Origin: an archaeon
Lineage (GTDB): Archaea > Iainarchaeota > Iainarchaeia > Iainarchaeales > CSSED10-239
Length of the DNA stretch: 32,000 nt
NCBI GenBank assembly: GCA_041657425.1
Contig: JBBABY010000002.1
Span: 110,602 to 142,601, forward strand
Direction: 5' to 3'
Shown: positions 9,262 to 32,000 of the stretch, in pieces
How positions within the stretch are numbered: the first letter of the stretch is position 1
Layout of the letters: every line of letters begins with the position of its first letter
Program-made: the position numbers and the translations under genes
The notes under the pieces: generated by a model
Seen by the model: only the letters and a program-made list of their open reading frames with translations
Databases searched by the model: none
Told to the model about the DNA's origin: nothing

Positions 9262-9280
9262 AAAAGAAAAGATATCTTCT

Positions 9281-10396
9281 CTAAGATATCTTTAATGATA
9301 CTGCTTCTCCATTTTCAATAATGAAGTAATCTACTTGTGGATTTATTGCTCTTCCAATTGAAGAGTTATAATTTATTACTGTACCTGTTGCTTGATCATT
9401 TAACATTGCATCAGTAATACATACTTTATCTGCCTTTCCACATTTCTTTACTGCAGAATATAATTTAAATATTCCATCATAATCTGTTGGAGCATTTCCA
9501 GTTATTCCTGTTGTGTTACCATATTCTACATTGTAATCGCTTGTAAATGTGTCAGAATATTTTAATACACTAATAACTGTTCCATTTAAATTTTCTGTAC
9601 CAATTGTAGTTTTAATTTTGTCTGTAAATGTGTTTGATGCATCTCCAAATAACACTAAGTTATTTAACTCAAGATCTAACTTTGCAGTATATACTCCAAT
9701 TGTTGTACCTTCATAAGCACATGAAAATAATCCATAATATCCTTCATTGCTTAACTTAAGTAATACTGTTTTTAGGTCTTGTACCCCTACTAAACTTTCA
9801 ACTTTTATATTTTCTTGTGTGTAATAATTTAATGCACCTTTTTGACAATCAATTGGCATAGCCCCACCAACACCATCAAGTATTGCAATCTTTTCAATTC
9901 CTTGTGATTTTGCAATTTTTGCAAATGTTGTACATTCTGCTTCTGCATTTCTATATGTTTTTACTGAGTAATCATATTTTGTTAATGGATCTGTTGTGTA
10001 CGCACTATACAATACAAACATATTGTTATCTTTAGCAATTGGAACAACTGCACCTGATGGGCCAGTAAATTCTACAAATATTACATCAACATTATCTATT
10101 TGTACTAACTTGTTTGCTGCAACTGCAGCTTCTTTTGCATCTGATTTTGAATCTTCAACTATTACTTGTATTGAATCATCACCATACATTTCTTTTATTT
10201 TCTTTTCTGCTAACAATACTGCTCTTGAATCTGGCACTCCAAGATAACTTGTTGTTCCAGTTATTCCTGTAATAAAACCTATCTTTACTGTTTGTGGTTC
10301 TGATTTTTTAGTTGCTTGAATTGCAACAACAACTATTAAGGCAATAACTGCAATTGCTACAATAATTAAAATCCAATTTTTATTTTCTGTTTTCAT
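9281..10396 (-). CDS. ABC substrate-binding protein 2 (divergent LivK-like), membrane-anchored
   Basis: TM anchor WILIIVAIAVIALIVVVAIQ, then VKIGFITGITGTTSYLG. Start trimmed to the ATG at 10396, which has GGAGG 9 nt upstream. The ORF track begins at 10417. Confidence 0.75.
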   Translation of the reverse strand: MKTENKNWILIIVAIAVIALIVVVAIQATKKSEPQTVKIGFITGITGTTSYLGVPDSRAVLLAEKKIKEMYGDDSIQVIVEDSKSDAKEAAVAANKLVQIDNVDVIFVEFTGPSGAVVPIAKDNNMFVLYSAYTTDPLTKYDYSVKTYRNAEAECTTFAKIAKSQGIEKIAILDGVGGAMPIDCQKGALNYYTQENIKVESLVGVQDLKTVLLKLSNEGYYGLFSCAYEGTTIGVYTAKLDLELNNLVLFGDASNTFTDKIKTTIGTENLNGTVISVLKYSDTFTSDYNVEYGNTTGITGNAPTDYDGIFKLYSAVKKCGKADKVCITDAMLNDQATGTVINYNSSIGRAINPQVDYFIIENGEAVSLKIS

Positions 10397-10466
10397 AGTT
10401 TCTTTCCTCCAAATCATTTTATCAAGTTATTAAATAACTTATAATCGTTCTTGCTTATAAGTGAGT

Positions 10467-10506: not shown

Positions 10507-11307
10507 ATGCTATTTATGAAGGAAAAAACCTCAGAAGTAATGGCGATGCCTGACCTTAATCCAGCAGACTTATTTAGTTACTTTGAAGAAATAGGGTTTA
10601 AGAGAAACCATGCAAACACTTATCTTGCTTTGTTGAAATTTGGACAACTTGGAATGCGCGACATTGTTAAAAAAACAGGAATACAAAGAAGTTATGTTTA
10701 TGATATCTTAGATGAACTAACAGAAAAAGGACTTGTTGGATTTTTTACAAAAAACAAAAATAGAGTTTACTTTGCTGATGATCCAGAAAAGATTTTAGAA
10801 TTAATAAATAATAAAGAAGAAAAAATAAAAAACTTCAAACAAAAATACACAGCATTACTTCCTAGTTTAATTTCAGTAACCAATGTTGAAGGAAAAGATG
10901 GACTGTATGCTTATGAAGGAAGAAACGGTTTAAAGAATATATTTGAAGACATGATTAAAGAAGGAAAAGATTTTGTTTGTTTTGGAGGAGAAGGAGAATT
11001 CTCTAAATACTATCCAGAATATGCAAACACTTTTACTTTAAGATGTAAACAAAAAGGAATGGCACAAAAAATTGTTTATTCAAGTTCACTTAGAGGAAAG
11101 AGACCACTTCCAATACAGAAAATAATTAAATGTGAAATTAAGTTTTTACCTAAAGAATATTATTATCCATTTGCAATTTATGTTTATGGAGATAAAACCG
11201 CAATCATTATGTGGCAATCAATGCAAGGAATATTGATCAAAGGAGAAAGCACAGCAAAGGGATTTGAAGACTATTTTGAAATGATATGGAAAATTGCTAA
11301 AGAATAA
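10507..11307 (+). CDS. TrmB-family transcriptional regulator (paralog)
   Basis: wHTH FEEIGFKRNHANTYLALLKFGQLGMRDIVKKTGIQRSYVYDILDELTEKGLV. Collinear with 8485..9261 along its full length. Confidence 0.8.
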   Translation: MLFMKEKTSEVMAMPDLNPADLFSYFEEIGFKRNHANTYLALLKFGQLGMRDIVKKTGIQRSYVYDILDELTEKGLVGFFTKNKNRVYFADDPEKILELINNKEEKIKNFKQKYTALLPSLISVTNVEGKDGLYAYEGRNGLKNIFEDMIKEGKDFVCFGGEGEFSKYYPEYANTFTLRCKQKGMAQKIVYSSSLRGKRPLPIQKIIKCEIKFLPKEYYYPFAIYVYGDKTAIIMWQSMQGILIKGESTAKGFEDYFEMIWKIAKE

Positions 11308-11327
11308 ATAAAAAAAGAAAAAAGAAA

Positions 11328-12476
11328 TCAGTTGTAAATTACAACTGTTCCGTTTCTTATTGTGTTGAAGATGTAACTTGATTGTACGTCTCCGTATGAA
11401 TCGAAAGTTACTGTTCCTGATGTCATGTGCTTGTCTTTGATTGAGTAAAGATATGCTTTTGCACATTCTGTGTCTTCTTTACAATGATCTATTGCTTCAG
11501 CTATAACATATACTGAATCATAAGTGTATGCTGAGTAAGACAATGGTAATTGATTTGGGAAGTCTTGTCCGTATAATGATTTTAACTTGTTACTGTATTC
11601 TAAAGTAACTGGGTCTTTGTCATTAATGTTGTATTGAGGATAGATTGCTCCTTCAACTAACTCTGGATACTCGCTTACAATTTCAGGTAAAGCAATCATT
11701 TCGTTTGTAAATATCTTTGGTTTATAGTTGTTTGCTTGAAATTCATTTAAGATTAATCTTAATGTTGCCTTTCCTGTTGAGTTTGGTATTAAGTAAACTG
11801 CCTGTGGGTTACTTGCAATTACTTTTGTAACAATTGTTCTAAAATCATTTTCTGTTGACATATATCCTTCTTCTAAAACTATTTTGTTATTTGAGTCTTT
11901 TAGATATTCAGCTTTGAAAGTATCTGCAAGTGCTTTAGAGTATGCTTCGTTTTCATAAATGATTGCTACTTTTGTTATTTTTTGATTAACCATTTCTTCT
12001 GAAACCTTTTGTGCAAGATATGAGTCTGATGGTATTAATCTAAAAACGTAATCTCCTGCATTTGTTATTTCTTGACTTGATCCTGATGGTGATAACATTA
12101 TTACTTTTGAACTTTCTATTATTGGTGCTGCACCAAGAACTTCTGAACTACAGAATCCTCCAATTATATAATCTACTTTATCAATATTTACTAATTTACT
12201 TGCAGCATTAGCTGCTTCTTTAGAATCACATTTTCCATCTTCGTAAATGAATTCTATTTTATTTTGATCTTTGTTGATTTCACTCTTTGCTAACTCTAGT
12301 GATTTAGACAATTCATCTCCAAGACCAGCAGCGTCTCCTGATAGTGGCATAATTATTCCAATCTTTGTTACTGTTTGTTTTGAAGCAGGCGTGAATAAAC
12401 CACTAACTGTTGCTATTAAAACAAAACCAACTAATAACACTACTAAACTAACTAATAAAATATTTTTCTTTTGCAT
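11328..12476 (-). CDS. ABC substrate-binding protein 3, LivK-like, membrane-anchored
   Basis: TM anchor, then TKIGIIMPLSGDAAGLGDE...EDGKCDSKEAANAASKLVNIDKVDYIIGGFCSSE. Start trimmed to the ATG at 12476 with GGAGG 8 nt upstream. The ORF-track start at 12491 is a TTG. Confidence 0.8.
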   Translation of the reverse strand: MQKKNILLVSLVVLLVGFVLIATVSGLFTPASKQTVTKIGIIMPLSGDAAGLGDELSKSLELAKSEINKDQNKIEFIYEDGKCDSKEAANAASKLVNIDKVDYIIGGFCSSEVLGAAPIIESSKVIMLSPSGSSQEITNAGDYVFRLIPSDSYLAQKVSEEMVNQKITKVAIIYENEAYSKALADTFKAEYLKDSNNKIVLEEGYMSTENDFRTIVTKVIASNPQAVYLIPNSTGKATLRLILNEFQANNYKPKIFTNEMIALPEIVSEYPELVEGAIYPQYNINDKDPVTLEYSNKLKSLYGQDFPNQLPLSYSAYTYDSVYVIAEAIDHCKEDTECAKAYLYSIKDKHMTSGTVTFDSYGDVQSSYIFNTIRNGTVVIYN

Positions 12477-12572
12477 AATTTTTTCCTCCAATATGTTTTT
12501 TCTCTAATGCGTAAATGATATAATTAGAGCAGACCAAGTACTTAAGAAATACCAGAGAAAAACTAAACAAAC

Positions 12573-12598
12573 CAGTAGTATTTATAAATATATTACTG
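12573..12598. promoter_or_regulatory. near-palindrome CAGTAGTA-TTTATAAATA-TATTACTG spanning a TATA-like core
   Basis: 8-nt arms are 7/8 complementary. It shares the GTAGTA/TTACT half-site with the two TrmB operators. It lies 13 nt before the Lrp/AsnC gene start. Confidence 0.35.
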
Positions 12599-12610
12599 CT
12601 TTATTTAATT

Positions 12611-13591
12611 ATGGATGAAATAACCCAAATTGATAGAAAAATCATATATGAACTATCAATTAATTCTAGGTTAAGTTATAAGGAACTAGCAAAGAAAATT
12701 GACTCAAAGAAAGACACTGTTGCTTACCATGTTAATCAATTGATTGATAACAAAGTAATAACTAAGTTCTTGCCCGTGTTTTCTTTATCTAAACTTAATA
12801 TTCTAACATATAAGATTTATTTCAAACTACAAGGACTAACTCCTGACAAAGAAAAAGAACTTTATGATTATCTAGTAAATAGTCAAAAAATTGATTGGGT
12901 GGTTAAAGTCCTAGGGCAATGGGATTTGTTTATTGGACTATATTCTAAAACACCTCTTGAGTTTTCAAAAACAAAAGATGAATTACTTTCTAAATTTAAT
13001 GATATTATAACAAGCTATCAAGTTGTTCAAATGGCAGACCAAACAATTGCATTTGGAAGAGATTACTTGATTGATAAGCCAGATGTCATCTATAGAAAAG
13101 AATTTGTTTTTATTTCTCAGAATGAAAAGACTCAATTAGATTTAACTGATCTAAAAATAATTAATGAAATTAAAAATGATGGAAGATTCAAGTATCTTGA
13201 TGTTTCTAAAAAGATTGGGATTAATGAAAAGACAATTAGAGAAAGAATAAAGAAGATGAAAGAAAATAATTTCTTGCAAGGTTACACTATCTTTATTGAT
13301 CCTAAGAAGATTAATGGATTTACCTACAAGCTTTGTATCTACTTAAGTGACCATGATCAAAAAAGATTTAATGAACTAATTGATTACACAAAGCTTAACC
13401 CTAATGTTGTTCGCCTGATTAAATCAATTGGGCCATGGGAATTAGAGATTGAACTAGAAGCAAGTGATATTTTAAAGATATACGAATACACAAATCAACT
13501 AAAGAATAAATTCTCAACAACAATAAAGCAAATAGATATTTCAATTATGACAGATGAATTGAAATTGAATTACTTTCCTGGAAACTATTAA
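12611..13591 (+). CDS. tandem (double) Lrp/AsnC-family transcriptional regulator
   Basis: There are two HTH_AsnC-like modules: IDRKIIYELSINSRLSYKELAKKIDSKKDTVAYHVNQLIDNKVI and DLKIINEIKNDGRFKYLDVSKKIGINEKTIRERIKKMKENNFL. Each is followed by a RAM-like segment. Confidence 0.75.
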   Translation: MDEITQIDRKIIYELSINSRLSYKELAKKIDSKKDTVAYHVNQLIDNKVITKFLPVFSLSKLNILTYKIYFKLQGLTPDKEKELYDYLVNSQKIDWVVKVLGQWDLFIGLYSKTPLEFSKTKDELLSKFNDIITSYQVVQMADQTIAFGRDYLIDKPDVIYRKEFVFISQNEKTQLDLTDLKIINEIKNDGRFKYLDVSKKIGINEKTIRERIKKMKENNFLQGYTIFIDPKKINGFTYKLCIYLSDHDQKRFNELIDYTKLNPNVVRLIKSIGPWELEIELEASDILKIYEYTNQLKNKFSTTIKQIDISIMTDELKLNYFPGNY

Positions 13592-13610
13592 AAAAAGAAA
13601 AAGAAAAAAA

Positions 13611-14747
13611 CTACTTTAGTAAAGTAGCTTTCCCATCTCTTACTATGTTTAACTGGAAGTACATGTCTGGATCTCCATTCTTGTCAAAGCTTATTGTTCC
13701 TGAAGTTCCATCGTAATCCTTTACTGAGTATAAATAATCTTTTATACATTCTGTATCTTCTTGATCACATTTCTCTAGTGCTTGTGCTGTAATGTATACT
13801 GAATCATATACTCCTGCAACCATTTGTAAAGAATAGGTTGGATCTGTATTGTATGTTGTTCTGTAGTTGCTTAAGAATGCTACAAAGTCTTCTTTATCTT
13901 GATCAAACTTTATTTCTGAATAGATTACTCCTTCAAGTAAAGTTGGAACTGCATCTAAAACATCTTTGTTTACTAATGCTCTTGTTGAAAATAAGGCTGT
14001 ACCGTTTGCTAGAGTATCTAATTGTTTTAGAAATTCAATTGAGTTTACTCCTTTTAATGGCAAGAAAAGAACTGCATCAGTATTAGCTGATTTAATCTTT
14101 GTAATTTCTGTTCTGAAATCTATTTGATCTGTTGCATATTGTTCAGAGAAAGCAATTGTTCCTCCAAGTTCTTTAAACTTATTTTCAAAGTCTTTTTGTA
14201 CAGAAGCTGAAAAAGCATCTGGTGCTGTTAATATTGATACTTTTCTATAACCTTCTTCATACATATAGTTTGCTAACATCTCTGTACCTTTTGTATCATT
14301 AGGAGAAATTCTAAAAACATAATCTCCTGCTGAAGAGATTGCTGGACTTGCTGACATTACTCCAAATACTACAGTACTACTTTCGTTTGCAATCTTTGCA
14401 CTACTTAATGTTACTGTACTACATACTGTATAGATTAATGGAACGTGATCTATGTTAATTAACTTGTTTGTAGCATCACTTGCTAACTTTCCATCACATT
14501 GACCATCTTCTACAATTAATTCTAATTTATGACCTTTTACTCCACCTTTACTGTTTATTTCATTTACTGCTAATTGAGCTGCATTTAATGCTGGAATACC
14601 AAAAGAAGTTGTTCCTCCACTTAACCCTGAAATCATTCCTAACTTTATAGTGTCTTTAGGTTTACTTGCATTTACTAAATAAAATCCAAATAGTAAAATC
14701 CCCACCATCACTAACGCAATTACTAACATTTTTGTATTTTTTTTCAT
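13611..14747 (-). CDS. ABC substrate-binding protein 4, LivK-like, membrane-anchored
   Basis: TM anchor, then IKLGMISGLSGGTTSFGIPALNAAQLAVNEINSKGGVKGHKLELIVEDGQCD. Start trimmed to the ATG at 14747, preceded by AGGAGG. The ORF-track start at 14774 is a GTG. Confidence 0.8.
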   Translation of the reverse strand: MKKNTKMLVIALVMVGILLFGFYLVNASKPKDTIKLGMISGLSGGTTSFGIPALNAAQLAVNEINSKGGVKGHKLELIVEDGQCDGKLASDATNKLINIDHVPLIYTVCSTVTLSSAKIANESSTVVFGVMSASPAISSAGDYVFRISPNDTKGTEMLANYMYEEGYRKVSILTAPDAFSASVQKDFENKFKELGGTIAFSEQYATDQIDFRTEITKIKSANTDAVLFLPLKGVNSIEFLKQLDTLANGTALFSTRALVNKDVLDAVPTLLEGVIYSEIKFDQDKEDFVAFLSNYRTTYNTDPTYSLQMVAGVYDSVYITAQALEKCDQEDTECIKDYLYSVKDYDGTSGTISFDKNGDPDMYFQLNIVRDGKATLLK

Positions 14748-14817
14748 ATGATTTCCTCCTTTTAATTTGTTCACTTTATTAAATAACTTATCTTCAAAGG
14801 AGTATATCTAAATAAGG

Positions 14818-14832
14818 ACCCCCTAAGGGGGT
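14818..14832. promoter_or_regulatory. GC-rich perfect palindrome ACCCCCT-A-AGGGGGT in a divergent promoter region
   Basis: 7-bp arms with a 1-nt centre. It is an isolated GC island in AT-rich intergenic DNA between binding-protein gene 4 and a TrmB gene. Confidence 0.4.
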
Positions 14833-14875
14833 ATTAACAGAAAACTATATAAAAGTAATATTGCCTAATATTATT

Positions 14876-15613
14876 ATGGAAGAACTAGAGATTATTGGGT
14901 TTACTAAGAATGAAAGCAGAGTTTACTTAGAACTTCTTAAGCTTGGCAAATCAACTAAAACTCCAATTGCTTACAAATCAGGAGTATCTACTTCTAAAGT
15001 TTATGATATTTTAGAAAGATTAAGAAGCAAAGGACTTGTGTCAATTTCTACAATTAATAAGGTAAAATACTTTAAAGCAGCACCACCTAATCAACTAAAT
15101 CATTATCTTGAAAAAAAAGAAAGCGAATTAGCAAATCAGAAGAAAATGATTAGTAATATAATGCCAACACTAAACGAATACACAAACAAAAACGAAGAAA
15201 AATTTGTTACAAAATATTATACTGGCACAAATGGACTAAAAACAGCAATAAACGAAATATTAGATTTAGCAAAAGAAAACACAATCTATTATGGAATGGG
15301 AATAACTGAAAAGAAAAATGAGATGCTAAATATCAACTGGGTACATTGGCACAGAAAGAGGGCAAAAAAGAACATTACTTCTAAATTAATATTTGGAGAA
15401 ATAGATAATCAAAAATATTATAACAATCTCAAAAACATTAGTAAAACAGAAGTAAAAATAATGAATGCTCAAACTCCTTCTGCATTAGCAATACTAGACG
15501 GAAGAGTTTTAATTGTAAACTATACAGAAGTTCCTGTTGCAATAATTATTGAAGATAAAAATATTAGTGAAACATTTATAACTTTCTTTAATAATATTTG
15601 GAATATTATCTAA
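14876..15613 (+). CDS. TrmB-family transcriptional regulator
   Basis: MEELEIIGFTKNESRVYLELLKLGKSTKTPIAYKSGVSTSKVYDILERLRSKGLV is a typical TrmB N-terminus. Start trimmed from the TTG at 14861 to the first ATG. Confidence 0.8.
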   Translation: MEELEIIGFTKNESRVYLELLKLGKSTKTPIAYKSGVSTSKVYDILERLRSKGLVSISTINKVKYFKAAPPNQLNHYLEKKESELANQKKMISNIMPTLNEYTNKNEEKFVTKYYTGTNGLKTAINEILDLAKENTIYYGMGITEKKNEMLNINWVHWHRKRAKKNITSKLIFGEIDNQKYYNNLKNISKTEVKIMNAQTPSALAILDGRVLIVNYTEVPVAIIIEDKNISETFITFFNNIWNII

Positions 15614-18543: not shown

Positions 18544-19275
18544 CTATTTAATTGTGTTCCAAAGATAATTAAAAAACTTCCTTTCTACGTTTGCAATTTG
18601 TTTTGATTTAATTAGTATTGCTTTTGGGGTATCTTCTTGCCAATCAATGAAACCAACATAATCTCCACAAATTACTTTATTAGACGGTATTGGAGTGTCT
18701 GTTATTTTTGTCTTTAGAAAATTTCTTTGAGAATATAGGTTTTTTTGCCCATTTGGAATAATTGCTTTTGCTAAAATGTTTTTTACTTTTCTTCTAATGT
18801 CAAATTTTTTGTAATATTTAACTATTTCTTTATTATTTTCTAGAATTGGAGTGTCTGCCGGATAAAATAGATATTCTTCTCCTTTTTCTGTATTTGCAAT
18901 TATTGTATTATTAAATGTTGTAATACCAGGAAAACCTACAAAAATTTCAAAAGAGTTTGAATATTCGTCAGATATCTTATTTTGTACTTTTTTTAGATTT
19001 TCAACAATTGCTGTTAACTTTACTTCTTTTTCTTTTATAAAACTTAAAATGTTATCTGGATCTTTTGCAAAATATATCTTCTTTCCTCCTTTCTGTGTGA
19101 AAGAAACAAATCCTTTGTTTATTAGTCTTGTGATATTGAAATGAAAAACAGAATTTTGGAGATTTTCTTTTGAGATTATTTGACCTGCTGATGATGGACC
19201 AGTCCTTAACAAAGACACATATACTTTAATCTCTCCTGCCGTAAAGCCAAGTTCTTCAAGTATCTGTAAATCCAT
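18544..19275 (-). CDS. TrmB-family transcriptional regulator
   Basis: MDLQILEELGFTAGEIKVYVSLLRTGPSSAGQII... is a typical TrmB N-terminus. The ORF-track start at 19362 is a GTG extension, so I trimmed it to the ATG at 19275. Confidence 0.75.
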   Translation of the reverse strand: MDLQILEELGFTAGEIKVYVSLLRTGPSSAGQIISKENLQNSVFHFNITRLINKGFVSFTQKGGKKIYFAKDPDNILSFIKEKEVKLTAIVENLKKVQNKISDEYSNSFEIFVGFPGITTFNNTIIANTEKGEEYLFYPADTPILENNKEIVKYYKKFDIRRKVKNILAKAIIPNGQKNLYSQRNFLKTKITDTPIPSNKVICGDYVGFIDWQEDTPKAILIKSKQIANVERKFFNYLWNTIK

Positions 19276-19412
19276 ATATATTACTAGGATAATTAAATAT
19301 ATATACCTATGTTTATGTCCTCCTAGTTTGGAGAACAGAAGTTTATATCTCTCTTTATCCACAAGTTATTTATTCACGATAATAAAGTAAAACTAAACGG
19401 AGAGATAAAAAT

Positions 19413-20573
19413 ATGAAAAATAAAACATGGTTAATAATTTCAATTGCAATAGTTGTTCTAGTTTTAGTAATTGCAATAATCGGATTTAATTCAGGCAGTA
19501 CTGGATTATTAACTTTAGGAAATACTAAAGAGCAAACAATCAAGATTGGAGTACTTGCAACACAAACAGGAAGTGGAACATACTTCGGGGCTCAAGAAAT
19601 TAAAGGGCTAAATGTGGCTTTAGATGAAATTAATGCCAATGGTGGAATCAATGGAAAGAAAGTTGAACTAATTATTGAAGACACCCAATCAGATTCAAAA
19701 CAAGCAATTAACGCTACAAATAAATTAATAAATATAGATAATGTAGAATACATTATTGGAGACTCATGGAATGATACAACACTTGCAATAGTTCCAGTTA
19801 CTAATGACAATAAAGTTATTGTAATTTCACCAGCAGCTAATCTTGAATCGTTATCAAAAAACGACTATATGTTTAGAACAACACCGACTATTAAAGACAT
19901 GATGATTGTTCTTGCAGATTATACATATAATGATTTAGGAATTAGAAGTGTTGGAATAGTCTTACCTGGAACTGCATTCAGTTTAGAACACGAACAATAC
20001 TTTAGAGAAGAATTCACTAAACTTGGAGGAACAGTATATACTGAACAATTCGCACCAGGAACAATTGATATTAAAACAGAATTAATGAAATTAAAAGCAA
20101 AAAATCCAGATGCATACTTTGATTTACAATTTTCAGGAACTCTTGGAACTGTTATGCAACAAGGAACTGATCTTGAATTAATGGATAAAGTTTGGTTAGC
20201 ACATTATGGCGCACAAAGCGACGCTATGGTAAATCAATACAAAGATTACACAGATGGATTAATTTACACATACACATATGATTCAAGTGCTCAATTAAAA
20301 TCAATGACTGAATTTAATCAAAAGTATCAAGCAAAATATAATTCATTACCAGATGGAACAGCAGCAAACTCTTATGATGCATTGATTATTCTTGCTAAAG
20401 CTATTGAACATTCAAGAAATGACACAGACAAGGCAAAAGAATACTTAAGTACAAAGATTAAAAATCAAAAAGGTGCAAGTGGAATTATTTCATTTGATGC
20501 TTACGGTAATGCAAAAAAAGATATAATTATTAAACAAATAAAAAACGGAAAATTTGTAAAGATATCTAATTAG
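19413..20573 (+). CDS. ABC substrate-binding protein 5, LivK-like, membrane-anchored
   Basis: The N-terminus MKNKTWLIISIAIVVLVLVIAIIGFNSGSTGLL is nearly the same as in binding protein 1. It is followed by IKIGVLATQTGSGTYFGAQEIKGLNVALDEINANGGINGKKVELI. Confidence 0.85.
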   Translation: MKNKTWLIISIAIVVLVLVIAIIGFNSGSTGLLTLGNTKEQTIKIGVLATQTGSGTYFGAQEIKGLNVALDEINANGGINGKKVELIIEDTQSDSKQAINATNKLINIDNVEYIIGDSWNDTTLAIVPVTNDNKVIVISPAANLESLSKNDYMFRTTPTIKDMMIVLADYTYNDLGIRSVGIVLPGTAFSLEHEQYFREEFTKLGGTVYTEQFAPGTIDIKTELMKLKAKNPDAYFDLQFSGTLGTVMQQGTDLELMDKVWLAHYGAQSDAMVNQYKDYTDGLIYTYTYDSSAQLKSMTEFNQKYQAKYNSLPDGTAANSYDALIILAKAIEHSRNDTDKAKEYLSTKIKNQKGASGIISFDAYGNAKKDIIIKQIKNGKFVKISN

Positions 20574-25696: not shown

Positions 25697-25709
25697 TGTT
25701 TTTACCTTA

Positions 25710-25802
25710 AAGCTCCAGACGCGCTCAGTTAGGACCATACGCAATCTGGCTGGGCGCGAGCCGACCGCAACCGGCTCACCCAAAAATTAAAAGCGCACGA
25801 TT
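25710..25802. repeat. junction element A: tRNA-Thr 3'-end core AAGCTCCAGACG plus right arm interrupted by a 52-nt GC-rich insertion
   Basis: The core is at 25710..25721. The arm CGCTC...CCCAAAAATTAAAAGCGCACG matches B and C. The insertion at 25727..25778 contains hairpin GAGCCG-N8-CGGCTC. There is no left arm, and the element directly abuts the DUF1295 start. Confidence 0.8.
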
Positions 25803-25852
25803 TTATTCTAATAACCATTTCTATAAAGGCATATATTTAATAGCTTTATTAC

Positions 25853-27205
25853 TTATTTTTTCTTATTCGCACTTATTTCTTTTGTAATGTCTTTTGTAGA
25901 ATTGCCTAAGTTTTCAGATATTATCTTTGATTTTCTCTGTGATTCTGAAATATTTAAATAACGGCCTAATACTTTATCTACTTCTTTAAAACCATAAGCC
26001 TCTTCAAGCTCACTGAACATATAACATTTTAATGTGTATCTTGGTCCTAATTCATCTACTATTTCTTTAAGACTATATTCTTTTAAATACCCTAAATTAC
26101 CAACAACCGTGTCCCTATAGCCAGCACCTCCTACGCGTATTATTATATCCTGTGTTTTTAAAATTCCTCCGTGTGCTCTTGTAAACTCTCTAAGACCTAC
26201 TACCTTAAATATATATGGGCGGCCTCCACTCAACGAATTATGCTCGGATTCATACATTTTTTCCAATTTTTCCCAACCGCCAAACGCTTGTGCAATTTTA
26301 TCAAGACCAAATTTGCGGGTTGTTGCTTTAAGACCCCAATAATCTAGAGTATTTTTTACACCAAAAGCGTCTGCAAATTCTGTAATAATATATGGGCAAT
26401 CTTTCATTTCATAATCCCGAGGCGCTTCCGAAATTACATAGCTATACTTTAAAAAAGCATCTAGTATACGATCGTTTTTAAATAATTGTGCAGCAGCTTT
26501 AAGGCCACCTGCAGCTTCTATAGTTGGTTCTAATCCTATTTCTGCTACAAACTGACGAAAATTCGCAACTTTTGCTAGTTCTTTAATATTATACATTTTC
26601 ATAACTGGACTCACACCGGCTCCGTGAACTACCCAATCTAAACCAAATACATCTAACATATCTTTAATGCCATATTCTTTAATCATATATTTAATTAAAT
26701 CTTTTTCCGTATATCTTTCAGAACCACCAATTTTTTCACCATAATAATCTATTATACTTTCTAATTCACGATCATGGAATTTATCTCTTCCTGATTTTTT
26801 TTCATCAATTTTAAATAGTTTTACAGTTTCTTTTAAACCAAAAATATCCATAATAACATAAATTGGAATCCCTTTTGCTTTTAATTGTCTTGCATCAATT
26901 CCTTTTGAAAGCAAGAATTGGGCAGGATTTTTTAATTTTCTAGAATCTGAAAGTAAATGTTTTATTTTTAAAATAGATAATTTTTCAGAATATCGTTTTT
27001 TAGACTCTTCAATTAACGAGATAATTTTTTCTTGATCATATGTTTTTAATTCTTCTTTTATCTGTCGATTAGTTTTTTGTTTTGCAGTTCCTTTTGATTT
27101 TTCTAATGAAACAACGCCATTAGGCTTTTGTTTGCCTACAAAATTAGAATTAATCAATCTCCCTGTTTTTGTTTGTATCATTTTTGATTTTGGCGCCAAT
27201 GGCAT
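25853..27205 (-). CDS. hypothetical protein with basic N-terminus and recurrent [FY]G-x-K-x-x-[LV]-x-x-[FW]G-like motifs
   Basis: 450-aa ORF with GGAGAGG upstream of the ATG. The motif recurs as IFGLKETVKLF, EYGIKDMLDVFGL, AFGVKNTLDYWGLK, KFGLDKIAQAFGG and AYGFKEVDKVLG. Confidence 0.6.
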   Translation of the reverse strand: MPLAPKSKMIQTKTGRLINSNFVGKQKPNGVVSLEKSKGTAKQKTNRQIKEELKTYDQEKIISLIEESKKRYSEKLSILKIKHLLSDSRKLKNPAQFLLSKGIDARQLKAKGIPIYVIMDIFGLKETVKLFKIDEKKSGRDKFHDRELESIIDYYGEKIGGSERYTEKDLIKYMIKEYGIKDMLDVFGLDWVVHGAGVSPVMKMYNIKELAKVANFRQFVAEIGLEPTIEAAGGLKAAAQLFKNDRILDAFLKYSYVISEAPRDYEMKDCPYIITEFADAFGVKNTLDYWGLKATTRKFGLDKIAQAFGGWEKLEKMYESEHNSLSGGRPYIFKVVGLREFTRAHGGILKTQDIIIRVGGAGYRDTVVGNLGYLKEYSLKEIVDELGPRYTLKCYMFSELEEAYGFKEVDKVLGRYLNISESQRKSKIISENLGNSTKDITKEISANKKK

Positions 27206-27316
27206 TCTAAATCCTCTCCATTTAATGTATTAAATTTATAAAAATACATAAGTACATAACATTTAAATGTATTTGGATTATGAGGTGTTGAGATAAAACA
27301 GTCTATAGATTAAAAA

Positions 27317-27416
27317 CCAGGAGTTTGAACTAACAGTTAAAACCATTGCGCGCTAGCCGAGCGAAACCGGCTAAGCTCCAGACGCGCTCTTACCCAAAAG
27401 TTAAAAGCGCACGATT
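27317..27416. repeat. junction element B: left arm (T-loop-like CCAGGAGTTTGAAC, GCGCGC, hairpin TAGCCG-N8-CGGCTA) + core + right arm
   Basis: 27347..27384 is identical over 38 nt to 31933..31970. 27374..27413 is identical over 40 nt to 29555..29594. Confidence 0.85.
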
Positions 27417-27452
27417 AGTAATATTTAAATACATTTATAATCTATATAAATT

Positions 27453-28022
27453 ATGCAAATTACAATCATCCCTAAAAAAGATTTGAAATTAGCAGATGAT
27501 CTTCAACAACAAATTCTTAATCCCACCCATAAAAGAAGATATAGGACTTTCGGATGTATCCATAAAAACTATAACAAAGAACCTTCTTTATTTATTGGTG
27601 CATATGATAAAGGAAAATTAATAGGAATTGCCTTTGGTTTCATAAAAAAATCAAAAATATTACTGGGAGAAATGGCAATTTTAGAAAATTACAGAAATAA
27701 AGGTATTGGGCAGAAACTTCTATCTTTTTTTGAAAAACAAGCAAAAAAGTTAAATAAAAAGTATATAGAATTAGGTGCTTGGGGTTCTGCTGAAAAATTC
27801 TATTTAAAAAATAACTATAAACCCTTGATTTTCGTACAAATATATCATCAAGATGTTCCAAAGAACTATAAACAATTAGAATTTGAGATTATTAAAGAAA
27901 CTAACTATGCAGATTCAAAAAGACTTTGGATAAAAAAAAAATATAATCCTAAATTAAAAGAAATATTAAAGAAGAAATTTAATGCATATAATGTTATTTA
28001 TTTATTTAGAAAAGAATTCTGA
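27453..28022 (+). CDS. GNAT-family N-acetyltransferase
   Basis: MAILENYRNKGIGQKLLSFFEKQAKKLNKKYIELGA matches the acetyl-CoA binding motif A. Confidence 0.75.
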   Translation: MQITIIPKKDLKLADDLQQQILNPTHKRRYRTFGCIHKNYNKEPSLFIGAYDKGKLIGIAFGFIKKSKILLGEMAILENYRNKGIGQKLLSFFEKQAKKLNKKYIELGAWGSAEKFYLKNNYKPLIFVQIYHQDVPKNYKQLEFEIIKETNYADSKRLWIKKKYNPKLKEILKKKFNAYNVIYLFRKEF

Positions 28023-28235
28023 AGCAGAAATTATTTTTAATAAATCTCTTCTAATATCATCAGCAATTAAATAATTTTTAGATTTCTTATTTATTTTCAA
28101 GTTATTTTTTATAGCAATTATTGCAGAATATATTTGTTTACTATTTTTGTGATCATATTCTAAAATTATATTTTTATGTGTAATAATAAAATATATTTTT
28201 TTAATATCTTTTCGATATAATATTTTTACAGCCAT
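28002..28235 (-). CDS. small protein downstream of the radical SAM gene (possible PqqD/RRE-like partner, unproven)
   Basis: 77 aa from the ATG at 28235, which lies 2 nt after the radical SAM stop with GGTGA upstream. The ORF-track start at 28253 is a TTG. Its size and position fit a RiPP recognition partner, but I cannot see a diagnostic motif. Confidence 0.5.
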   Translation of the reverse strand: MAVKILYRKDIKKIYFIITHKNIILEYDHKNSKQIYSAIIAIKNNLKINKKSKNYLIADDIRRDLLKIISASEFFSK

Positions 28236-28237
28236 TC

Positions 28238-29272
28238 TTATTTCACCAAACAAAAATCAATATCTTCATATATTGATTTATCTAAAAGGTCTAATTGAAC
28301 TGGACATCTTGCACACTTATCTCTTAATTTACAATTAGGACAACCAATTATTTGTTGTTTTCTCCAATTTTTAAATTCTTTAGAATTCCATACTTTGATT
28401 ATGTTTTTTGGAAATTTAAGTTTTACTCCAAAATCATTTTTAAATTTAGTATATTCAATCAACGGACAAGGATAAGCTATCTTTTCAGGAGAAATGTGAT
28501 AATAATGAATTCCTGCACCGCATTCAAATACAAATTTTTTACCATCTATTAATTTAAAATCAGATATATCTAATTCTATGTCATATAAAACACATTGTTT
28601 CTTCAATTTATTTAAAAACGATTTATTCGCAAATAATTTATATATTTTATTAGTATCTATATCTAATTTGTTGGTTTCGCCCCTTCCTTTTTTCAATAAG
28701 GGGCCAATTACCCATTTTTTCACACCTAAATTAGATAAAAATTTAGGAAATCCCAATAATTGGTTATAATTCTTAGAGTGAACTAATGTACCTACCGTAA
28801 CAAATATACCTTCATCTGTAAATCGTTTTATTGTTCCTATAGTTTTTTTAAATACAAACTTATTCCTATTAATAGGATCTCTAATATATGTGTGCGAATT
28901 TGAAGTAATTCCATCTAAAGAAATCTTAATTGACAGAACCATATTAGACTGTTTTATCTTTTCAAACAAACTATCTGAAAAAATTCCATTAGTTGTTAAG
29001 CAGTATGGTAATTTTATCTTATCTAAATAATTTATTAAATTAATAAAATCAGAATATCTTGTGGGTTCTCCACCAGATAAATTAACATATAACACTTCAT
29101 CTTTTATAAGGTATAACATCTTTTTAAGAAAGTTAAATGGGATATCTGTTTTTTTAAATCCAAAACTGCCATAGCAATGAGAACAACGCAAATTACAATC
29201 TGTAGTTATAGATATATGGATATGAAGAGGATTGTCTTTAGGTAACTTTGCTTTAATTATTTCAGAATCCAT
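28238..29272 (-). CDS. radical SAM enzyme with C-terminal SPASM-type auxiliary cluster domain (peptide maturase-like)
   Basis: The CxxxCxxC motif lies in ITTDCNLRCSHCYG. The GGEP motif lies in NLSGGEPT. The C-terminal Cys set is FECGAG...YPC...GCPNCKLRDKCARCP...DFC. Confidence 0.85.
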   Translation of the reverse strand: MDSEIIKAKLPKDNPLHIHISITTDCNLRCSHCYGSFGFKKTDIPFNFLKKMLYLIKDEVLYVNLSGGEPTRYSDFINLINYLDKIKLPYCLTTNGIFSDSLFEKIKQSNMVLSIKISLDGITSNSHTYIRDPINRNKFVFKKTIGTIKRFTDEGIFVTVGTLVHSKNYNQLLGFPKFLSNLGVKKWVIGPLLKKGRGETNKLDIDTNKIYKLFANKSFLNKLKKQCVLYDIELDISDFKLIDGKKFVFECGAGIHYYHISPEKIAYPCPLIEYTKFKNDFGVKLKFPKNIIKVWNSKEFKNWRKQQIIGCPNCKLRDKCARCPVQLDLLDKSIYEDIDFCLVK

Positions 29273-29274
29273 AA

Positions 29275-29400
29275 TTAATATTGATTATGGCCGCATTCAT
29301 CTGAATCAAATTTAGAAAGCACCTTAAATTTAATCTCTTTTCCTTTTACTTTTATTTTTTTTGATTCTGTATTAACTGCAATTGCTGCTGTTGATATCAT
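29275..29400 (-). CDS. 41-aa candidate RiPP precursor peptide MISTAAIAVNTESKKIKVKGKEIKFKVLSKFDSDECGHNQY
   Basis: Not in the ORF track because it is under 60 aa. I translated it by hand. Its TAA stop lies 2 nt before the radical SAM ATG. TTTATAAATATTTTT (TATA-like) lies about 35-50 nt upstream. It has a Lys-rich leader and an acidic Cys/Tyr C-terminus. Confidence 0.6.
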   Translation of the reverse strand: MISTAAIAVNTESKKIKVKGKEIKFKVLSKFDSDECGHNQY

Positions 29401-29491
29401 AAAATTACCAAATTACTTTAAGATTAAAAATATTTATAAATAGTAACTATTTTACAAATTTTTGGAATTTACAAAAAAATTAAAAAAATAA

Positions 29492-29597
29492 GTGCCTGGA
29501 GCTTTGAACCGATATTTAATCAGTAAATATCTATAGTTACACGAAAAGAAATCAAGCTCCAGACGCGCTCTTACCCAAAAGTTAAAAGCGCACGGTT
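29492..29597. repeat. junction element C: left arm (GTGCCTGGAGCTTTGAAC...TTAATCAG...) + core + right arm, lacks the GCGCGC-hairpin module
   Basis: The core is at 29554..29565. The right arm is identical to B. By eye the left arm is largely identical to that of D over roughly 55 nt, with scattered substitutions. Confidence 0.85.
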
Positions 29598-29621
29598 TTT
29601 AAAAAACAATACACAATTAAC

Positions 29622-31760
29622 CTATCTTTCTATTGTATATTTATATCTACAATTTAGATTTGTTTCAGATATAAAATCTAACAAATCAGGATTAGAATCG
29701 TCACAATCTTTTCTTGCATTACAGAAAGCTGGGCAAGTACTTGGTTTCTCTTCAGAGGTTCCCCAGTTACAATAGCCATCGCCATCTTTATCTTCACAAT
29801 TAATGGCGTTATTAAAACCTGCTGGCCAATATGATTGATCCGTTGGTGGTGTTATCGATCCTTCAAAACTAGCAATACTAATAAATTCATCTGGAGCAAC
29901 ATCGATGTATGCGTACCCATTTTCCCCCCAATCAGTTCCCCAACTGTTTTTAAATATCCAGATAGTATTATTAGATGGATCATATTCTACAATATTATCT
30001 AAAGATTTATCACAAGTAATAAAACCAGGAAATAACGAACCATTAATACACTCTCCATTAATTGAAATATTATTTTGTAAGCAAGACGAATTATTAATTT
30101 CCACCCATTTTAAATTGTAAGGATCATTAATAAATATTCTTTCGCATTTAAGCGTTTTAATGCCGCTAATTGTTTCAGCAAAAATTATATTGGTATTATT
30201 AGTACTATTATTTATTATATTTACGTTGTATGATACATAAATTAAATTGTTTTCATCAGACATTTCACAATTTCCCCACTCAAAAGATGAATTAATACAT
30301 ATTTGATTATACCCTGAATTTTCTATAATTTGCCAATTTTGTTTGATATATCCAACTAATACCATTGCGTGATTCATAGGAGATATTTCTGAAAATAATG
30401 GCCCAAATTTTATTATTTTTTCTTTAATTTTTTCCTCATTTAAAGGAAATAGGCCTATAAGATCAGCATTATAATGACGCACATAACTATTTATTTCAGA
30501 ATTAAGCCAAACCCTGTCATTCCAATTACCACAAATATTATCGTATGAACAGTTTGCTGGATTAATTGAATCTCTTTCAACATATAAATCACAAGATTCA
30601 TCTGCCACGCCTTCATTGATTATTTTACAACTATGGGCGTGCCTTAGATTACAATCATCAAAACTGTAATTAGAATCTGGATAAGGATATATCCAACAAT
30701 CTGCAATCATTTGTTCAGATAAATCTAAACCTAAATACTGATTATAATATAAATTAACTTGCGATTCTAAGGTGCCAATTGCAGTAAAAAGCATACAAAG
30801 CCCCGCAAAAAATCCTTGATCCTTAACAGGCGTCATCCAGTTTTCTCCATGTCTATTTCTCCAGTCCCAAGAGTCTGGAAGTATGTAATTTGGCTCTGCT
30901 TCAGGGGGATTTACTGGCGGTTGTATTGCCGTATTATCTACATTTTTTGGACTATTATTTATTGTGTCTTCTAAAGTAAATATTCTGCCCTTATAATTTA
31001 AAAATCCTTGAAGGTTTGGTAGATATTCTGGTATTGTTCCGTCTTCGCTTCTAAATAATTTCTTTTTTTCTTCATAAGATAATTTAGAAACAGAAGTTTC
31101 TCCTGCAGTCCAACTACTTTGAGCAGAATTATAGTTTTTTATTTTTGCTTGATTTTGTGATTTTAGTGTTTGTTGTTTATAACTTTTTAGGTCTTTTACT
31201 TCTGTAAATGATTTGCTTTCTGAAAGAGTATTGATATTTGAAATTGTTAATGTAGCATCTTCTGTTTGGATTTTAATAAACTTAGGTGTTATTGGTTCTT
31301 CAAAAACACAAGTTTCTTCACAGATATCCTCAAAATCTATATTTTTACTATTGTTTGCTAAAAGATTATCCATTTCATAAACTAAATATTCTTTATTTTC
31401 AGAGTCTACAAGAATTATTCTTATAAGTCCTGCTTTTGATATTAAAGTCGCGTTACCAGTTACTGATAAAGCAATAATTGGGTTATCTAATTTTAATTCA
31501 AACTTTATATTTTCTTTAAAGGTTTGTGAAATTGAAGTGTTGTCTAATGGTTCTTTTGTTGGAATATTAAATTCAGTTAATTTTTGAGAACTTAATAAAT
31601 TATTTTCATTGGCTGGTTGTTCTAATTTTCCTTCTGAATTCATTATTCTTTTTGCATCACCAGTATTGCTTTTTATTAAAAAAACAGATAGTAAAATTGC
31701 AATTAGAAATATAAAAATTATTAAAATTATAAAATAGAGCTTTTTATTTTTTTTTGACAT
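29622..31760 (-). CDS. membrane-anchored papain-like (C1A) cysteine peptidase with large insertions and a Cys/Asp-rich C-terminal module
   Basis: The catalytic blocks are VKDQGFFAGLCMLF (Gln/Cys), NHAMVLVGY (His) and IFKNSWGTDWGENGYAYI (Asn). The N-terminal signal anchor is LYFIILIIFIFLIAILLSVFLI. The C-terminus is CEDKDGDGYCNW...CDDSNPDL. The first ATG is at 31760, and the ORF-track start at 31769 is a GTG. Confidence 0.85.
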   Translation of the reverse strand: MSKKNKKLYFIILIIFIFLIAILLSVFLIKSNTGDAKRIMNSEGKLEQPANENNLLSSQKLTEFNIPTKEPLDNTSISQTFKENIKFELKLDNPIIALSVTGNATLISKAGLIRIILVDSENKEYLVYEMDNLLANNSKNIDFEDICEETCVFEEPITPKFIKIQTEDATLTISNINTLSESKSFTEVKDLKSYKQQTLKSQNQAKIKNYNSAQSSWTAGETSVSKLSYEEKKKLFRSEDGTIPEYLPNLQGFLNYKGRIFTLEDTINNSPKNVDNTAIQPPVNPPEAEPNYILPDSWDWRNRHGENWMTPVKDQGFFAGLCMLFTAIGTLESQVNLYYNQYLGLDLSEQMIADCWIYPYPDSNYSFDDCNLRHAHSCKIINEGVADESCDLYVERDSINPANCSYDNICGNWNDRVWLNSEINSYVRHYNADLIGLFPLNEEKIKEKIIKFGPLFSEISPMNHAMVLVGYIKQNWQIIENSGYNQICINSSFEWGNCEMSDENNLIYVSYNVNIINNSTNNTNIIFAETISGIKTLKCERIFINDPYNLKWVEINNSSCLQNNISINGECINGSLFPGFITCDKSLDNIVEYDPSNNTIWIFKNSWGTDWGENGYAYIDVAPDEFISIASFEGSITPPTDQSYWPAGFNNAINCEDKDGDGYCNWGTSEEKPSTCPAFCNARKDCDDSNPDLLDFISETNLNCRYKYTIER

Positions 31761-31872
31761 AAATATCACAATCTATTTATGGTTTGAAACAATTTAAATA
31801 GCTTGCCAATTTTATTTATGTCAGGAACGGCAATAAAATAAAAGCAAAAGAAATTAAAAGTAATAAGAACAA

Positions 31873-31959
31873 GCACCTGGAGATTTGAACTGCTTTTTAA
31901 TCAGTATTTATCAGTAGTTACAATTAGAATTCTGCGCGCTAGCCGAGCGAAACCGGCTA
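31873..31959. repeat. junction element D left arm (GCACCTGGAGATTTGAAC...GCGCGC, hairpin TAGCCG-N8-CGGCTA) abutting the intact tRNA-Thr 3' end
   Basis: Homologous to the left arms of C (distal part) and B (proximal 26 nt identical). Confidence 0.8.
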
Positions 31960-32000
31960 AGCTCCAGACGAGATTTGAACTCGTGACCTCGTCCTTACCA
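31960..32000 (-). tRNA. tRNA-Thr (anticodon GGU), 3' portion only; the gene continues beyond the window
   Basis: The minus strand reads ..TGGTAA GGACG AGGTC ACGAG TTCAAAT CTCGT CTGGAGC T. These are, in order: anticodon loop with GGT, anticodon stem 3' strand, 5-nt variable loop, 5-bp T stem with a canonical 7-nt T loop, acceptor 3' strand and discriminator U. No CCA is encoded. Confidence 0.75.

Follow-up and report, generated by a model that had tools for sequence, protein, structure and literature searches.

What is made by a radical S-adenosylmethionine (rSAM) enzyme that is encoded, in an archaeon, between two very small genes? This question is raised by a 32,000-nucleotide stretch of an Iainarchaeota contig (JBBABY010000002.1, positions 110,602 to 142,601; hereafter the window), in which a 41-residue peptide, an rSAM enzyme with a SPASM-type C-terminus and a 77-residue protein follow one another on the minus strand. 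A first-pass annotation of the window, made from the sequence alone, had described these genes as a minimal operon of the kind that produces peptides that are synthesised by ribosomes and modified after translation (RiPPs). The computational analysis reported here leads us to read the locus as a modification system for a RiPP, or for a peptide-derived small molecule, that comprises four genes and is carried by a 2.2-kb mobile cassette of a DPANN archaeon, a reading to which we assign a probability of about 0.6.

A short peptide with two conserved ends is encoded beside the radical SAM gene

The three open reading frames (ORFs) lie on the minus strand, with gaps of 2 nucleotides between them, at the positions that the first-pass annotation had given. 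The peptide gene (29400..29275) encodes 41 amino acids, MISTAAIAVNTESKKIKVKGKEIKFKVLSKFDSDECGHNQY, with the motif S-T-A-A-I-A near the N-terminus and the C-terminal sequence DECGHNQY, the core of which is C36-G-H-N39-Q40-Y41-stop. Its TAA stop codon is followed by 2 nucleotides (TT) and then by the ATG of the rSAM gene at 29272. The segment 29404..29440 (minus strand), which we take to be the promoter and Shine-Dalgarno (SD) region of the operon from its match to the archaeal promoter and SD consensus, holds a TATA-like box, TTTATAAATA, at 29440..29431 and an SD-like GGTAAT at 29409..29404. The upstream regions of the window and of the related loci L176, L173, L005 and L001 all retain TTTATAAA/TTTAAATA, as well as TTTGGTGATTTT directly before the ATG, the SD-like element being GGTAAT in the window and GGTGAT in the relatives.

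A protein search returned a tight family (P0001-P0008) at 43-99% identity and a second layer of about 60 clusters at roughly 30-35% identity, annotated as Woesearchaeota, Pacearchaeota or Nanoarchaeota; a contig scan of genomes returned only relatives at 31% identity or less (L013-L017). Contigs of the tight family show the order small ORF, rSAM gene, small ORF throughout, with the exception of L011, which begins inside the rSAM gene and retains the partner and acetyltransferase genes described below, and the peptides encoded upstream in this family are clearly orthologous to that of the window. An upstream peptide with the same two conserved ends is also encoded in the distant archaeal loci L013, L015, L017 and L093, as well as in L181 and L182, which have the precursor in two copies. 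Among candidate phyla radiation (CPR) bacteria, the peptide was found in two WS6/Dojkabacteria metagenome-assembled genomes (MAGs; L014 and L016) and in the bacterial loci L179 and L180, the L179 precursor carrying extra cysteines. In L014 and L016 the peptide gene is separated from the enzyme gene by about 3 kb, downstream of it at the other end of the cluster, and is kept even so; a cis-regulatory leader peptide was ruled out on this ground.

Orthologues of the peptide stand beside every related rSAM gene: it was kept in 25 of the 25 related loci that cover the region, so that one of the refuting conditions named by the first-pass annotation, a lack of conservation of the small ORF beside homologous rSAM genes, does not apply. 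Sixteen distinct sequences from DPANN archaea and CPR bacteria were aligned (n = 16; the distinct precursors number at least 16), representing Iainarchaeota-like lineages, Woese-, Pace- and Nanoarchaeota and WS6/Dojkabacteria, and two motifs are common to all of them. The first is an N-terminal segment with the consensus T-[A/M/S/V]-[A/G]-[I/L]-[A/S], which reads GPGTAGIAQ in most lineages and STAAIA in the window. The second is the tail C-x-x-N-[Q/E]-[Y/F], whose Cys and Asn are invariant; between the two, the sequence is variable. The terminal residue is Phe in place of Tyr in 5 of the 16 precursors, and the stop codon directly follows it in 15. The remaining one, encoded at L012 (1-165) within an otherwise intact system, ends in ...CTQNQYS, with one additional Ser, an observation that bears on whether a free carboxylate on the C-terminal Tyr is needed. 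The first-pass annotation had pointed to a CG..Y terminus; its Cys is kept throughout and its aromatic residue is Tyr or Phe, while other residues occur in place of the Gly and the His of CGHNQY. In relatives Gln or Val stands where the window has His, and a His-based cross-link or a CxH metal site was accordingly discarded. As a regular expression, the tail matched 25 of 28 family loci, the three misses being contigs that start inside or past the enzyme gene, and it had no match in 154 unrelated rSAM loci (1.05 Mb, six frames).

When the window was compared with L005, the last 6 codons showed 3 synonymous and no non-synonymous differences, whereas 2 and 11, respectively, were counted in the middle of the peptide. 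The termini are thus under purifying selection. Since the middle is variable and the ends are constrained, the peptide would have the layout of a leader and a core, the S-T-A-A-I-A motif being a probable recognition sequence. Because it is conserved in every covering locus, is preceded by a TATA-like box and a ribosome binding site, and bears the mark of selection on its termini, the peptide is a real conserved gene rather than a chance ORF, and its pairing with the enzyme is conserved across two domains of life. This pairing supports the unit of precursor, rSAM/SPASM enzyme and small partner that the first-pass annotation had recognised.

The host is an archaeon of the DPANN type. The window has a G+C content of 28% and encodes TrmB regulators, the contigs of relatives carry TBP, AglB and L21e genes, and one relative comes from a Candidatus Iainarchaeum MAG (DPANN), in line with the archaeon-like host that had been suggested.

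The enzyme is a radical SAM/SPASM protein that reaches no curated maturase model

The rSAM gene (29272..28238, minus strand) encodes a 344-residue protein, a predicted peptide maturase, that matches the Pfam Radical_SAM family (PF04055) with 66.8 bits for a cutoff of 29.5. Its cluster motif, C26-x3-C30-x2-C33, is invariant in alignments of 11 and of 80 sequences. The Pfam SPASM score of the window enzyme, 14.8 bits, is under the cutoff of 21.5, and relatives carry PF13186; the SPASM cysteines are C251, C269, C311-x2-C314-x5-C320-x2-C323 (CX2CX5CX2C) and C341. None of the seven varies in the 11-sequence alignment, which reaches down to 29% identity, and in the 80-sequence alignment (to about 21% identity) five are invariant and C251 and C341 are kept at 90% or more. 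An eighth, C232, is not conserved. The protein is therefore an rSAM enzyme with a seven-Cys SPASM domain, and the CxxxCxxC motif and seven-Cys C-terminus of the first-pass annotation are borne out by both alignments and fold. In a SPASM domain with seven cysteines, such as that of CteB, one site on auxiliary cluster I stays free, a point in favour of the thioether proposed below. As the protein has only 344 residues and its rSAM core begins at about residue 15, it has no N-terminal RiPP precursor recognition element (RRE) of its own.

The AlphaFold2 model of the enzyme (predicted local distance difference test, pLDDT, 88.9) is closest in the PDB to SuiB, with a template modelling (TM) score of 0.72-0.75 and an E-value of about 1e-15; SkfB, BlsE, CteB and PqqE come next by E-value, and anaerobic sulfatase-maturing enzyme (anSME) lower, with a TM score of about 0.7. 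SuiB is itself a SPASM RiPP maturase, the Lys-Trp C-C cyclase of streptide. It differs from the window enzyme in having its own N-terminal RRE and in the bond it makes; the two are 18% identical, and the window peptide has no Lys/Trp motif. This structural proximity is an argument for a rival chemistry, in which the enzyme would make a C-C or C-O cross-link onto the ring of the terminal Tyr/Phe, for example from the Cβ of the Asn two residues upstream, and the product would be a cyclophane like streptide, darobactin or the triceptides. The Asn and the aromatic residue are indeed conserved at positions i and i+2, and Asn is often a partner in aromatic cross-links of the cyclophane type. Such a bond would leave the invariant Cys unexplained, and no hidden Markov model (HMM) of a cyclophane maturase is among the 25 best-scoring NCBIfam families for the window enzyme. 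In the three-residue cyclophanes known to us, moreover, the aromatic residue is N-terminal to its partner, the reverse of the order found here. We consider a cyclophane quite improbable.

No NCBIfam model reached its cutoff for the window enzyme, nor for its CPR and Pacearchaeota versions, and the search against MftC, PqqE and sactipeptide and ranthipeptide maturases that had been proposed as a check thus brought no assignment. The best match, nearly full length, was MftC (TIGR03962), with 79.6 bits for a cutoff of 265; the enzymes of L016 and L015 scored 102-106 bits with the same model. Among the curated models of sactipeptide and ranthipeptide maturases (PapB, AlbA, SkfB, StsB, SCIFF), none was above its cutoff: for the window enzyme AlbA gave 63.7 bits (cutoff 850), PapB 60.3 (340), StsB 54.2 (625) and SkfB 47 (300). 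PqqE (TIGR02109) gave 42.9 bits for a cutoff of 381, and the L016 enzyme scored 104.9 bits with PqqE and 68.4 bits with PapB.

In the same weak range as the peptide maturases are the HMMs of AhbD, NirJ2 and viperin, which raises the question of whether the enzyme acts on a peptide at all; it could instead be of the AhbD/NirJ type, an anaerobic sulfatase maturase or a viperin-like antiviral protein, the small ORFs being incidental. A PADLOC model of prokaryotic viperin (pVip) gave 73 bits on the rSAM core, and neighbouring cassettes of other samples hold a candidate defence ATPase of family PDC-S01 (see below). The AhbD, NirJ2 and viperin scores are all far under cutoff (viperin, 56.3 bits for 180 in NCBIfam), and the pVip match is limited to residues 18-225, while viperins are without the full seven-Cys SPASM domain that is present here. 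Viperin structures match the core only, with TM scores of about 0.55-0.58, more weakly than SuiB or anSME. The assignment as a pVip was rejected on the partial match and the SPASM domain. Sulfatase or haem genes were not found nearby, and the peptide with the invariant tail accompanies the enzyme at every informative locus, in archaea and bacteria, and nowhere else. A role on a substrate other than a peptide is, in our opinion, very improbable.

A new domain family adjoins the modifying enzymes or is fused to them

The gene of the small partner protein (28235..28002, minus strand) starts with an ATG 2 nucleotides past the rSAM stop codon and encodes 77 amino acids; an alternative TTG start at 28253, used by some gene callers, would give 83. 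A search with this single sequence found only 3 close relatives, and it was by profile searches that the family was obtained, 75 representatives at 50% clustering in an exhaustive profile search. The partner directly follows the family rSAM gene in the archaeal relatives and in the CPR loci L014 and L016. It stands alone, is fused to a GNAT acetyltransferase (in many cases) or is fused to the C-terminus of a second enzyme: in L179 and L180 the partner domain is the C-terminus of a second rSAM protein, and P0167, located in L179, is a Clo7bot-like Cys-peptide rSAM maturase of this build.

No Pfam, NCBIfam or PDB sequence match was found for the partner. Its AlphaFold2 model (pLDDT 80.7), built on an alignment dominated by CPR sequences, has the topology b1-b2-b3-a1-a2-a3. 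The partner represents a new domain family, and we predict that it is an adaptor that binds the leader peptide. Different modifying enzymes of a single pathway have it as a neighbour or as a fused domain, and in this role it looks RRE-like, by analogy and not by membership in the RRE sequence family.

An acetyltransferase as the fourth component

A fourth gene (27453..28022, plus strand) converges on the operon and overlaps the 3' end of the partner gene by 21 nucleotides. It encodes a GNAT acetyltransferase of 189 amino acids (Pfam GNAT) and was not part of the span that the first-pass annotation had described. The same convergent GNAT gene is present in L001-L004, L011 and L173-L177, and in L005 it is cut off by the contig end. 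Across the wider family, the enzyme gene is followed by one for a protein of about 250 amino acids, the N-terminal 80 residues of which align with the partner, the C-terminal part being a GNAT; the window GNAT shares 30% identity (E 8e-16) with the C-terminal half of one such fusion, that of the Woesearchaeota locus L013. Since relatives fuse the partner to this very GNAT, the acetyltransferase belongs to the system, which consists of four genes.

Among the genes that other lineages have added are a GT1 glycosyltransferase, a BshB-like deacetylase of the PIG-L family and an RlmM-like THUMP/FtsJ methyltransferase, located in L016 5366-8280, L179 1453-6839, L181 6864-7838 and L006 2127-3029. A class I methyltransferase and an archaeal-type signal peptidase I also occur. 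An ABC exporter with a C39 peptidase domain lies 2.6 kb (L180) and 2.8 kb (L179) past the last gene of the cluster, beyond the genes for ribosomal protein S2 and EF-Ts. It should be noted that glycosyltransferase, deacetylase and GNAT together recall the enzyme set of mycothiol and bacillithiol synthesis, and that the THUMP methyltransferase, although in a peptide cluster, is of a type that acts on RNA.

A single thioether is the tentatively preferred modification

According to the mechanism that we propose, the 41-residue peptide would be the substrate. The 77-residue partner would bind its N-terminal T-A-[A/G]-I-[A/S] segment, acting as a new adaptor domain in place of an RRE or of the chaperone PqqD, and would present the C-terminal hexapeptide C-x-x-N-[Q/E]-[Y/F]-COOH to the RRE-less enzyme. 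With a 5'-deoxyadenosyl radical and two auxiliary Fe-S clusters, the enzyme would then form one intramolecular bond in the tail. This bond could be a thioether that joins the sulfur of the Cys to a carbon in one of three residues, Asn(+3), Gln/Glu(+4) and the terminal Tyr/Phe(+5), and that would close a small ring like those of sactipeptides and ranthipeptides. The GNAT would be recruited through the same partner domain and would then acylate the peptide, and other lineages would swap or add methyl-, glycosyl- and deacetylase tailoring.

A single Cys thioether heads our ranking of the possible chemistries, although we would give it slightly less than even odds. It is placed first because it makes sense of both the invariant Cys and the invariant residues near it, and because all three spacings have precedents. 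Thioethers are known between Cys and Asn in the NxxC peptides, between Cys and Asp/Glu at i+4 (PapB), between Cys and Thr at i+5 (thermocellin) and between Cys and Phe/Tyr (subtilosin, thuricin CD), so that +3, +4 and +5 are all spacings from Cys to acceptor that occur in ranthipeptides and sactipeptides. With the systems that make such peptides (PapB/freyrasin, CteB/thermocellin, NxxcB, AlbA, SkfB) the window system shares a core that contains Cys and an rSAM enzyme with a seven-Cys SPASM domain, SkfB and CteB being among its structural neighbours. By contrast, the maturases of those systems usually have an N-terminal RRE (SuiB, CteB and AlbA carry one), which the window enzyme lacks; the HMM scores are 47-64 bits here for cutoffs of 300-850; and the window family has one Cys, a strictly C-terminal aromatic residue and a core that is nearly invariant over two domains and not diversified.

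Several observations weigh against the proposed mechanism. The type of bond is not readable from sequence, and the thioether is in this respect a guess. An aromatic residue in last position, as in 15 of the 16 precursors, is a hallmark of MftA and not of sactipeptides or ranthipeptides, and the HMM scores lean slightly to MftC, PqqE and AhbD over thioether synthases. As to the predicted adaptor, none of 57 members of the partner family matched PqqD (PF05402) at E-values up to 10, and alignment of the partner with the PqqD domains of related rSAM proteins by hhalign gave probabilities of 0.1-0.3%. The best small-domain match in Foldseek was the lasso-peptide RRE TbiB1, with an E-value of 0.27 and a TM score of 0.31, which is not significant; the comparison of the 77-residue protein with PqqD and RRE profiles, also proposed as a check, thus revealed no similarity in sequence. 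Neither a protease nor an exporter is encoded within the window cassette, and the core has no evident conserved amine as a site for acetylation by the GNAT.

The terminal aromatic residue and the HMM scores invite a comparison with mycofactocin, which the first-pass annotation had made from an MftA end of ...CGVY. The published C-terminus is IDGXCGVY, with a Cys and a small residue shortly upstream of the terminal Tyr (PMC5264612). An alternative to the thioether can be built on this likeness. The rSAM enzyme with its chaperone would act like MftC, abstracting a hydrogen from the Cβ of the C-terminal Tyr/Phe for an oxidative decarboxylation and/or a C-C bond to Gln/Glu or Asn; the Cys and the Asn would be recognition residues only, like the IDGxCG segment of MftA, and the product would be cofactor-like and be glycosylated or methylated later in some lineages. 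Both systems have a short precursor with a conserved tail that ends in an aromatic residue, and an RRE-less SPASM enzyme that works beside a discrete small partner, as MftC and PqqE are known to need separate small chaperones, MftB and PqqD (PMC5682303). MftC is moreover the top curated model for the window enzyme, MftC and PqqE are among the best for its relatives, and glycosyltransferase and methyltransferase genes are present in relatives. Mycofactocin is both glycosylated and methylated. A core that is nearly identical in two domains may also be thought more cofactor-like than antibiotic-like.

All three Mft HMMs fail, however: MftC stays far below its cutoff, MftB is not matched, and MftA (TIGR03969) matches neither the window precursor nor those of CPR and Pacearchaeota. 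Creatininase or FMN-oxidase genes, which would be analogues of MftE and MftD, were absent from all the family loci examined. In place of the C-G-V-Y of MftA, the window family has the tail C-x-x-N-[Q/E]-[Y/F], the partner is not detectably PqqD-like, and the GNAT is the constant tailoring enzyme here. The Tyr is not terminal in the intact L012 system and is replaced by Phe in almost a third of the precursors. Finally, mycofactocin belongs to Actinobacteria, whereas the present hosts are DPANN archaea and CPR bacteria, and the module is on a mobile cassette, within a variable array beside candidate defence genes that would be an odd location for a core cofactor. Chemistry of the MftC type is in our judgement unlikely, if worth keeping in mind.

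The pyrroloquinoline quinone (PQQ) system, PqqA/PqqD/PqqE, offers the same organisation of an RRE-less SPASM enzyme with a separate small chaperone (PMC5682303), and PqqE is among the top models for the L016 enzyme. The Glu six residues before the Tyr, in which a PQQ-like feature had been seen, did not hold up: the position is occupied by E, K or T even in relatives whose rSAM enzymes are 87-99% identical, and a PQQ-like Glu-Tyr bond was rejected on this ground. The window enzyme also fails the PqqE model, the partner gives no PqqD signal, and there are no pqqB, pqqC or pqqF genes.

The module lies in a cassette array beside a tRNA gene

Returning to the four-gene system, the module is bounded by two perfect copies of a 40-nucleotide direct repeat, CGTGCGCTTTTAACTTTTGGGTAAGAGCGCGTCTGGAGCT, where none is expected by chance. 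In the reading direction of the operon, the upstream copy is at 29555..29594 and the downstream copy at 27374..27413 (both minus strand), and the last 11 nucleotides of each are the 3' end of tRNA-Thr(GGT). Similarity to other samples stops at the downstream repeat, with blastn breakpoints at 27372-27394 for L173, L174, L175 and L177, and contigs break at the repeats. The 3' part of a tRNA-Thr(GGT) gene, which anchors the array, is present at 31959..32000 (minus strand) and runs past the window end; positions 60-101 of L176 are identical to window 32000-31959, ARAGORN places tRNA-Thr(GGT) at L176 27-100, and the full gene is also found in L178.

The module is thus one 2.2-kb cassette in a tandem array of at least 3 small cassettes beside tRNA-Thr(GGT) (window 25700-32000), with junctions at 25705-25810, 27300-27425, 29465-29610 and 31850-31970. 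Two neighbouring cassettes, the first with a C1 peptidase gene (29622-31760) and the second with a 450-residue ORF (25853-27205), are delimited by degenerate versions of the repeat. The order and content of the cassettes vary between metagenome samples: in L176 the tRNA gene is joined directly to the rSAM cassette, L178 has the arrangement of the window, and in L173 and L174 a cassette with an AAA_14/DUF4143 ATPase gene lies on either side of the rSAM cassette (L174 1385-2554, L173 3-983). This ATPase matches the PADLOC candidate defence family PDC-S01 with 242 bits, and the array mixes the RiPP module with genes of the conflict type. Beyond this array, a module 87% identical follows another tRNA gene, tRNA-Thr(TGT), in L005, and a module 67% identical lies between the TBP and AglB genes with no tRNA gene. 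These perfect repeats and the variable array support the earlier description of the operon as the main cargo of a discrete, mobile cassette.

Archaeal integron cassettes typically carry acetyltransferase and defence genes (PMC9668308), and the present array resembles integron cassettes and tRNA-targeted islands in its tandem cassettes of 1.6-2.4 kb, mostly with a single operon, its shared repeat and its variable order and content. It is unlike integrons in that its direct repeats end in the 3' 11 nucleotides of tRNA-Thr and that promoters seem to be present within the cassettes themselves. The folding of the junction repeats does not exceed that of shuffled sequence (z -0.4 to -1.1), unlike attC hairpins; no recombinase gene is visible, and no integrase family was seen among the 28 window ORFs scanned with Pfam, a scan that left 10507-15613 and two ORFs near 23-24 kb outside. 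The reading as an attC/integron array was set aside on the lack of fold excess and of an integrase, HattCI and IntegronFinder not having been applied. A viral origin was set aside as well, there being no viral-contig match to the enzyme or the repeat.

Three further observations concern the array. An element of about 65 nucleotides is conserved at promoter-proximal cassette ends (29475-29541, 31856-31922 and 27300-27346), two of its copies being 78% identical. Within it, GGTTCAAAGCTCCAGG is similar to the T-loop and acceptor end of another tRNA. The element gave nothing in Rfam at gathering thresholds; it could be a small RNA or the remnant of an attachment site. An identical G+C-rich segment of 38 nucleotides at 27347-27384 and 31933-31970 follows the core repeat at two junctions and not at the third; it holds the hairpin TAGCCG-AGCGAAAC-CGGCTA, and a related hairpin is found at 25751-25788. 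The C1 (papain-family) cysteine peptidase of the neighbouring cassette (29622-31760, minus strand) has 712 amino acids, an N-terminal hydrophobic segment and a Cys-rich C-terminus. As it is not conserved beside the rSAM module elsewhere, it is probably an independent cargo rather than a leader peptidase.

Other features of the window

Elsewhere in the window, genes for TrmB-family regulators (8485-9261, 10507-11307 and 18544-19362) are repeatedly paired with genes for Peripla_BP_6 solute-binding proteins (neighbours at 7223-8368, 9281-10417 and 19413-20573), and these pairs surround an ABC transporter of the branched-chain-amino-acid type. The direct repeats 8532-9272 and 10575-11318 are 74-78% identical, and the pairs suggest a paralogous expansion of a module of regulator and binding protein. 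The ORF at 4056-5123 (minus strand) encodes a RelA/SpoT-domain protein similar to small alarmone synthetases, in a genome of the DPANN type. A 51-nucleotide repeat with 86% identity (4013-4063 and 5365-5415) links the 3' flank of this gene to the 3' end of the adjacent permease gene.

Discussion

Full-text literature searches found no description of this peptide-enzyme system, and no curated family covers any of its components. Among ribosomal peptides modified by rSAM enzymes, a class already known, the system forms a new family. The first-pass annotation had expected a mobile three-gene version in an archaeon to be new; the novelty stands, the genes number four, and the system is also present in CPR bacteria. 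Its unusual traits are an adaptor without a detectable RRE sequence signal, the fusions of this adaptor to a GNAT, a core that is nearly invariant between DPANN archaea and CPR bacteria, and a cassette anchored at a tRNA gene.

A wider suggestion, which we hold to be doubtful, is that DPANN archaea and CPR bacteria share one unrecognised peptide-derived small molecule, either cofactor-like or an effector or signal with a conserved target. It would be made from the tail C-x-x-N-[Q/E]-[Y/F] by a new SPASM clade and a leader-binding domain other than PqqD, and would be exchanged horizontally, here on a promoter-bearing 2.2-kb cassette in an integron-like array without attC hairpins.

With its peptide, enzyme, adaptor and GNAT and a core of six residues, the system is compact enough for easy reconstitution, from which a novel rSAM reaction or a novel domain for leader recognition could emerge. 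Genome-mining tools based on RREs now miss the partner domain and would be extended by it. Ultra-small cells that depend on a host make up two radiations, the DPANN archaea and the CPR bacteria, and to our knowledge almost nothing is known of their specialised peptide chemistry. A cassette that shuffles beside candidate defence genes provides a concrete case of how traits move in reduced genomes, and that the core is nearly the same in two domains speaks for a conserved molecular target or a cofactor role tied to the episymbiotic lifestyle.

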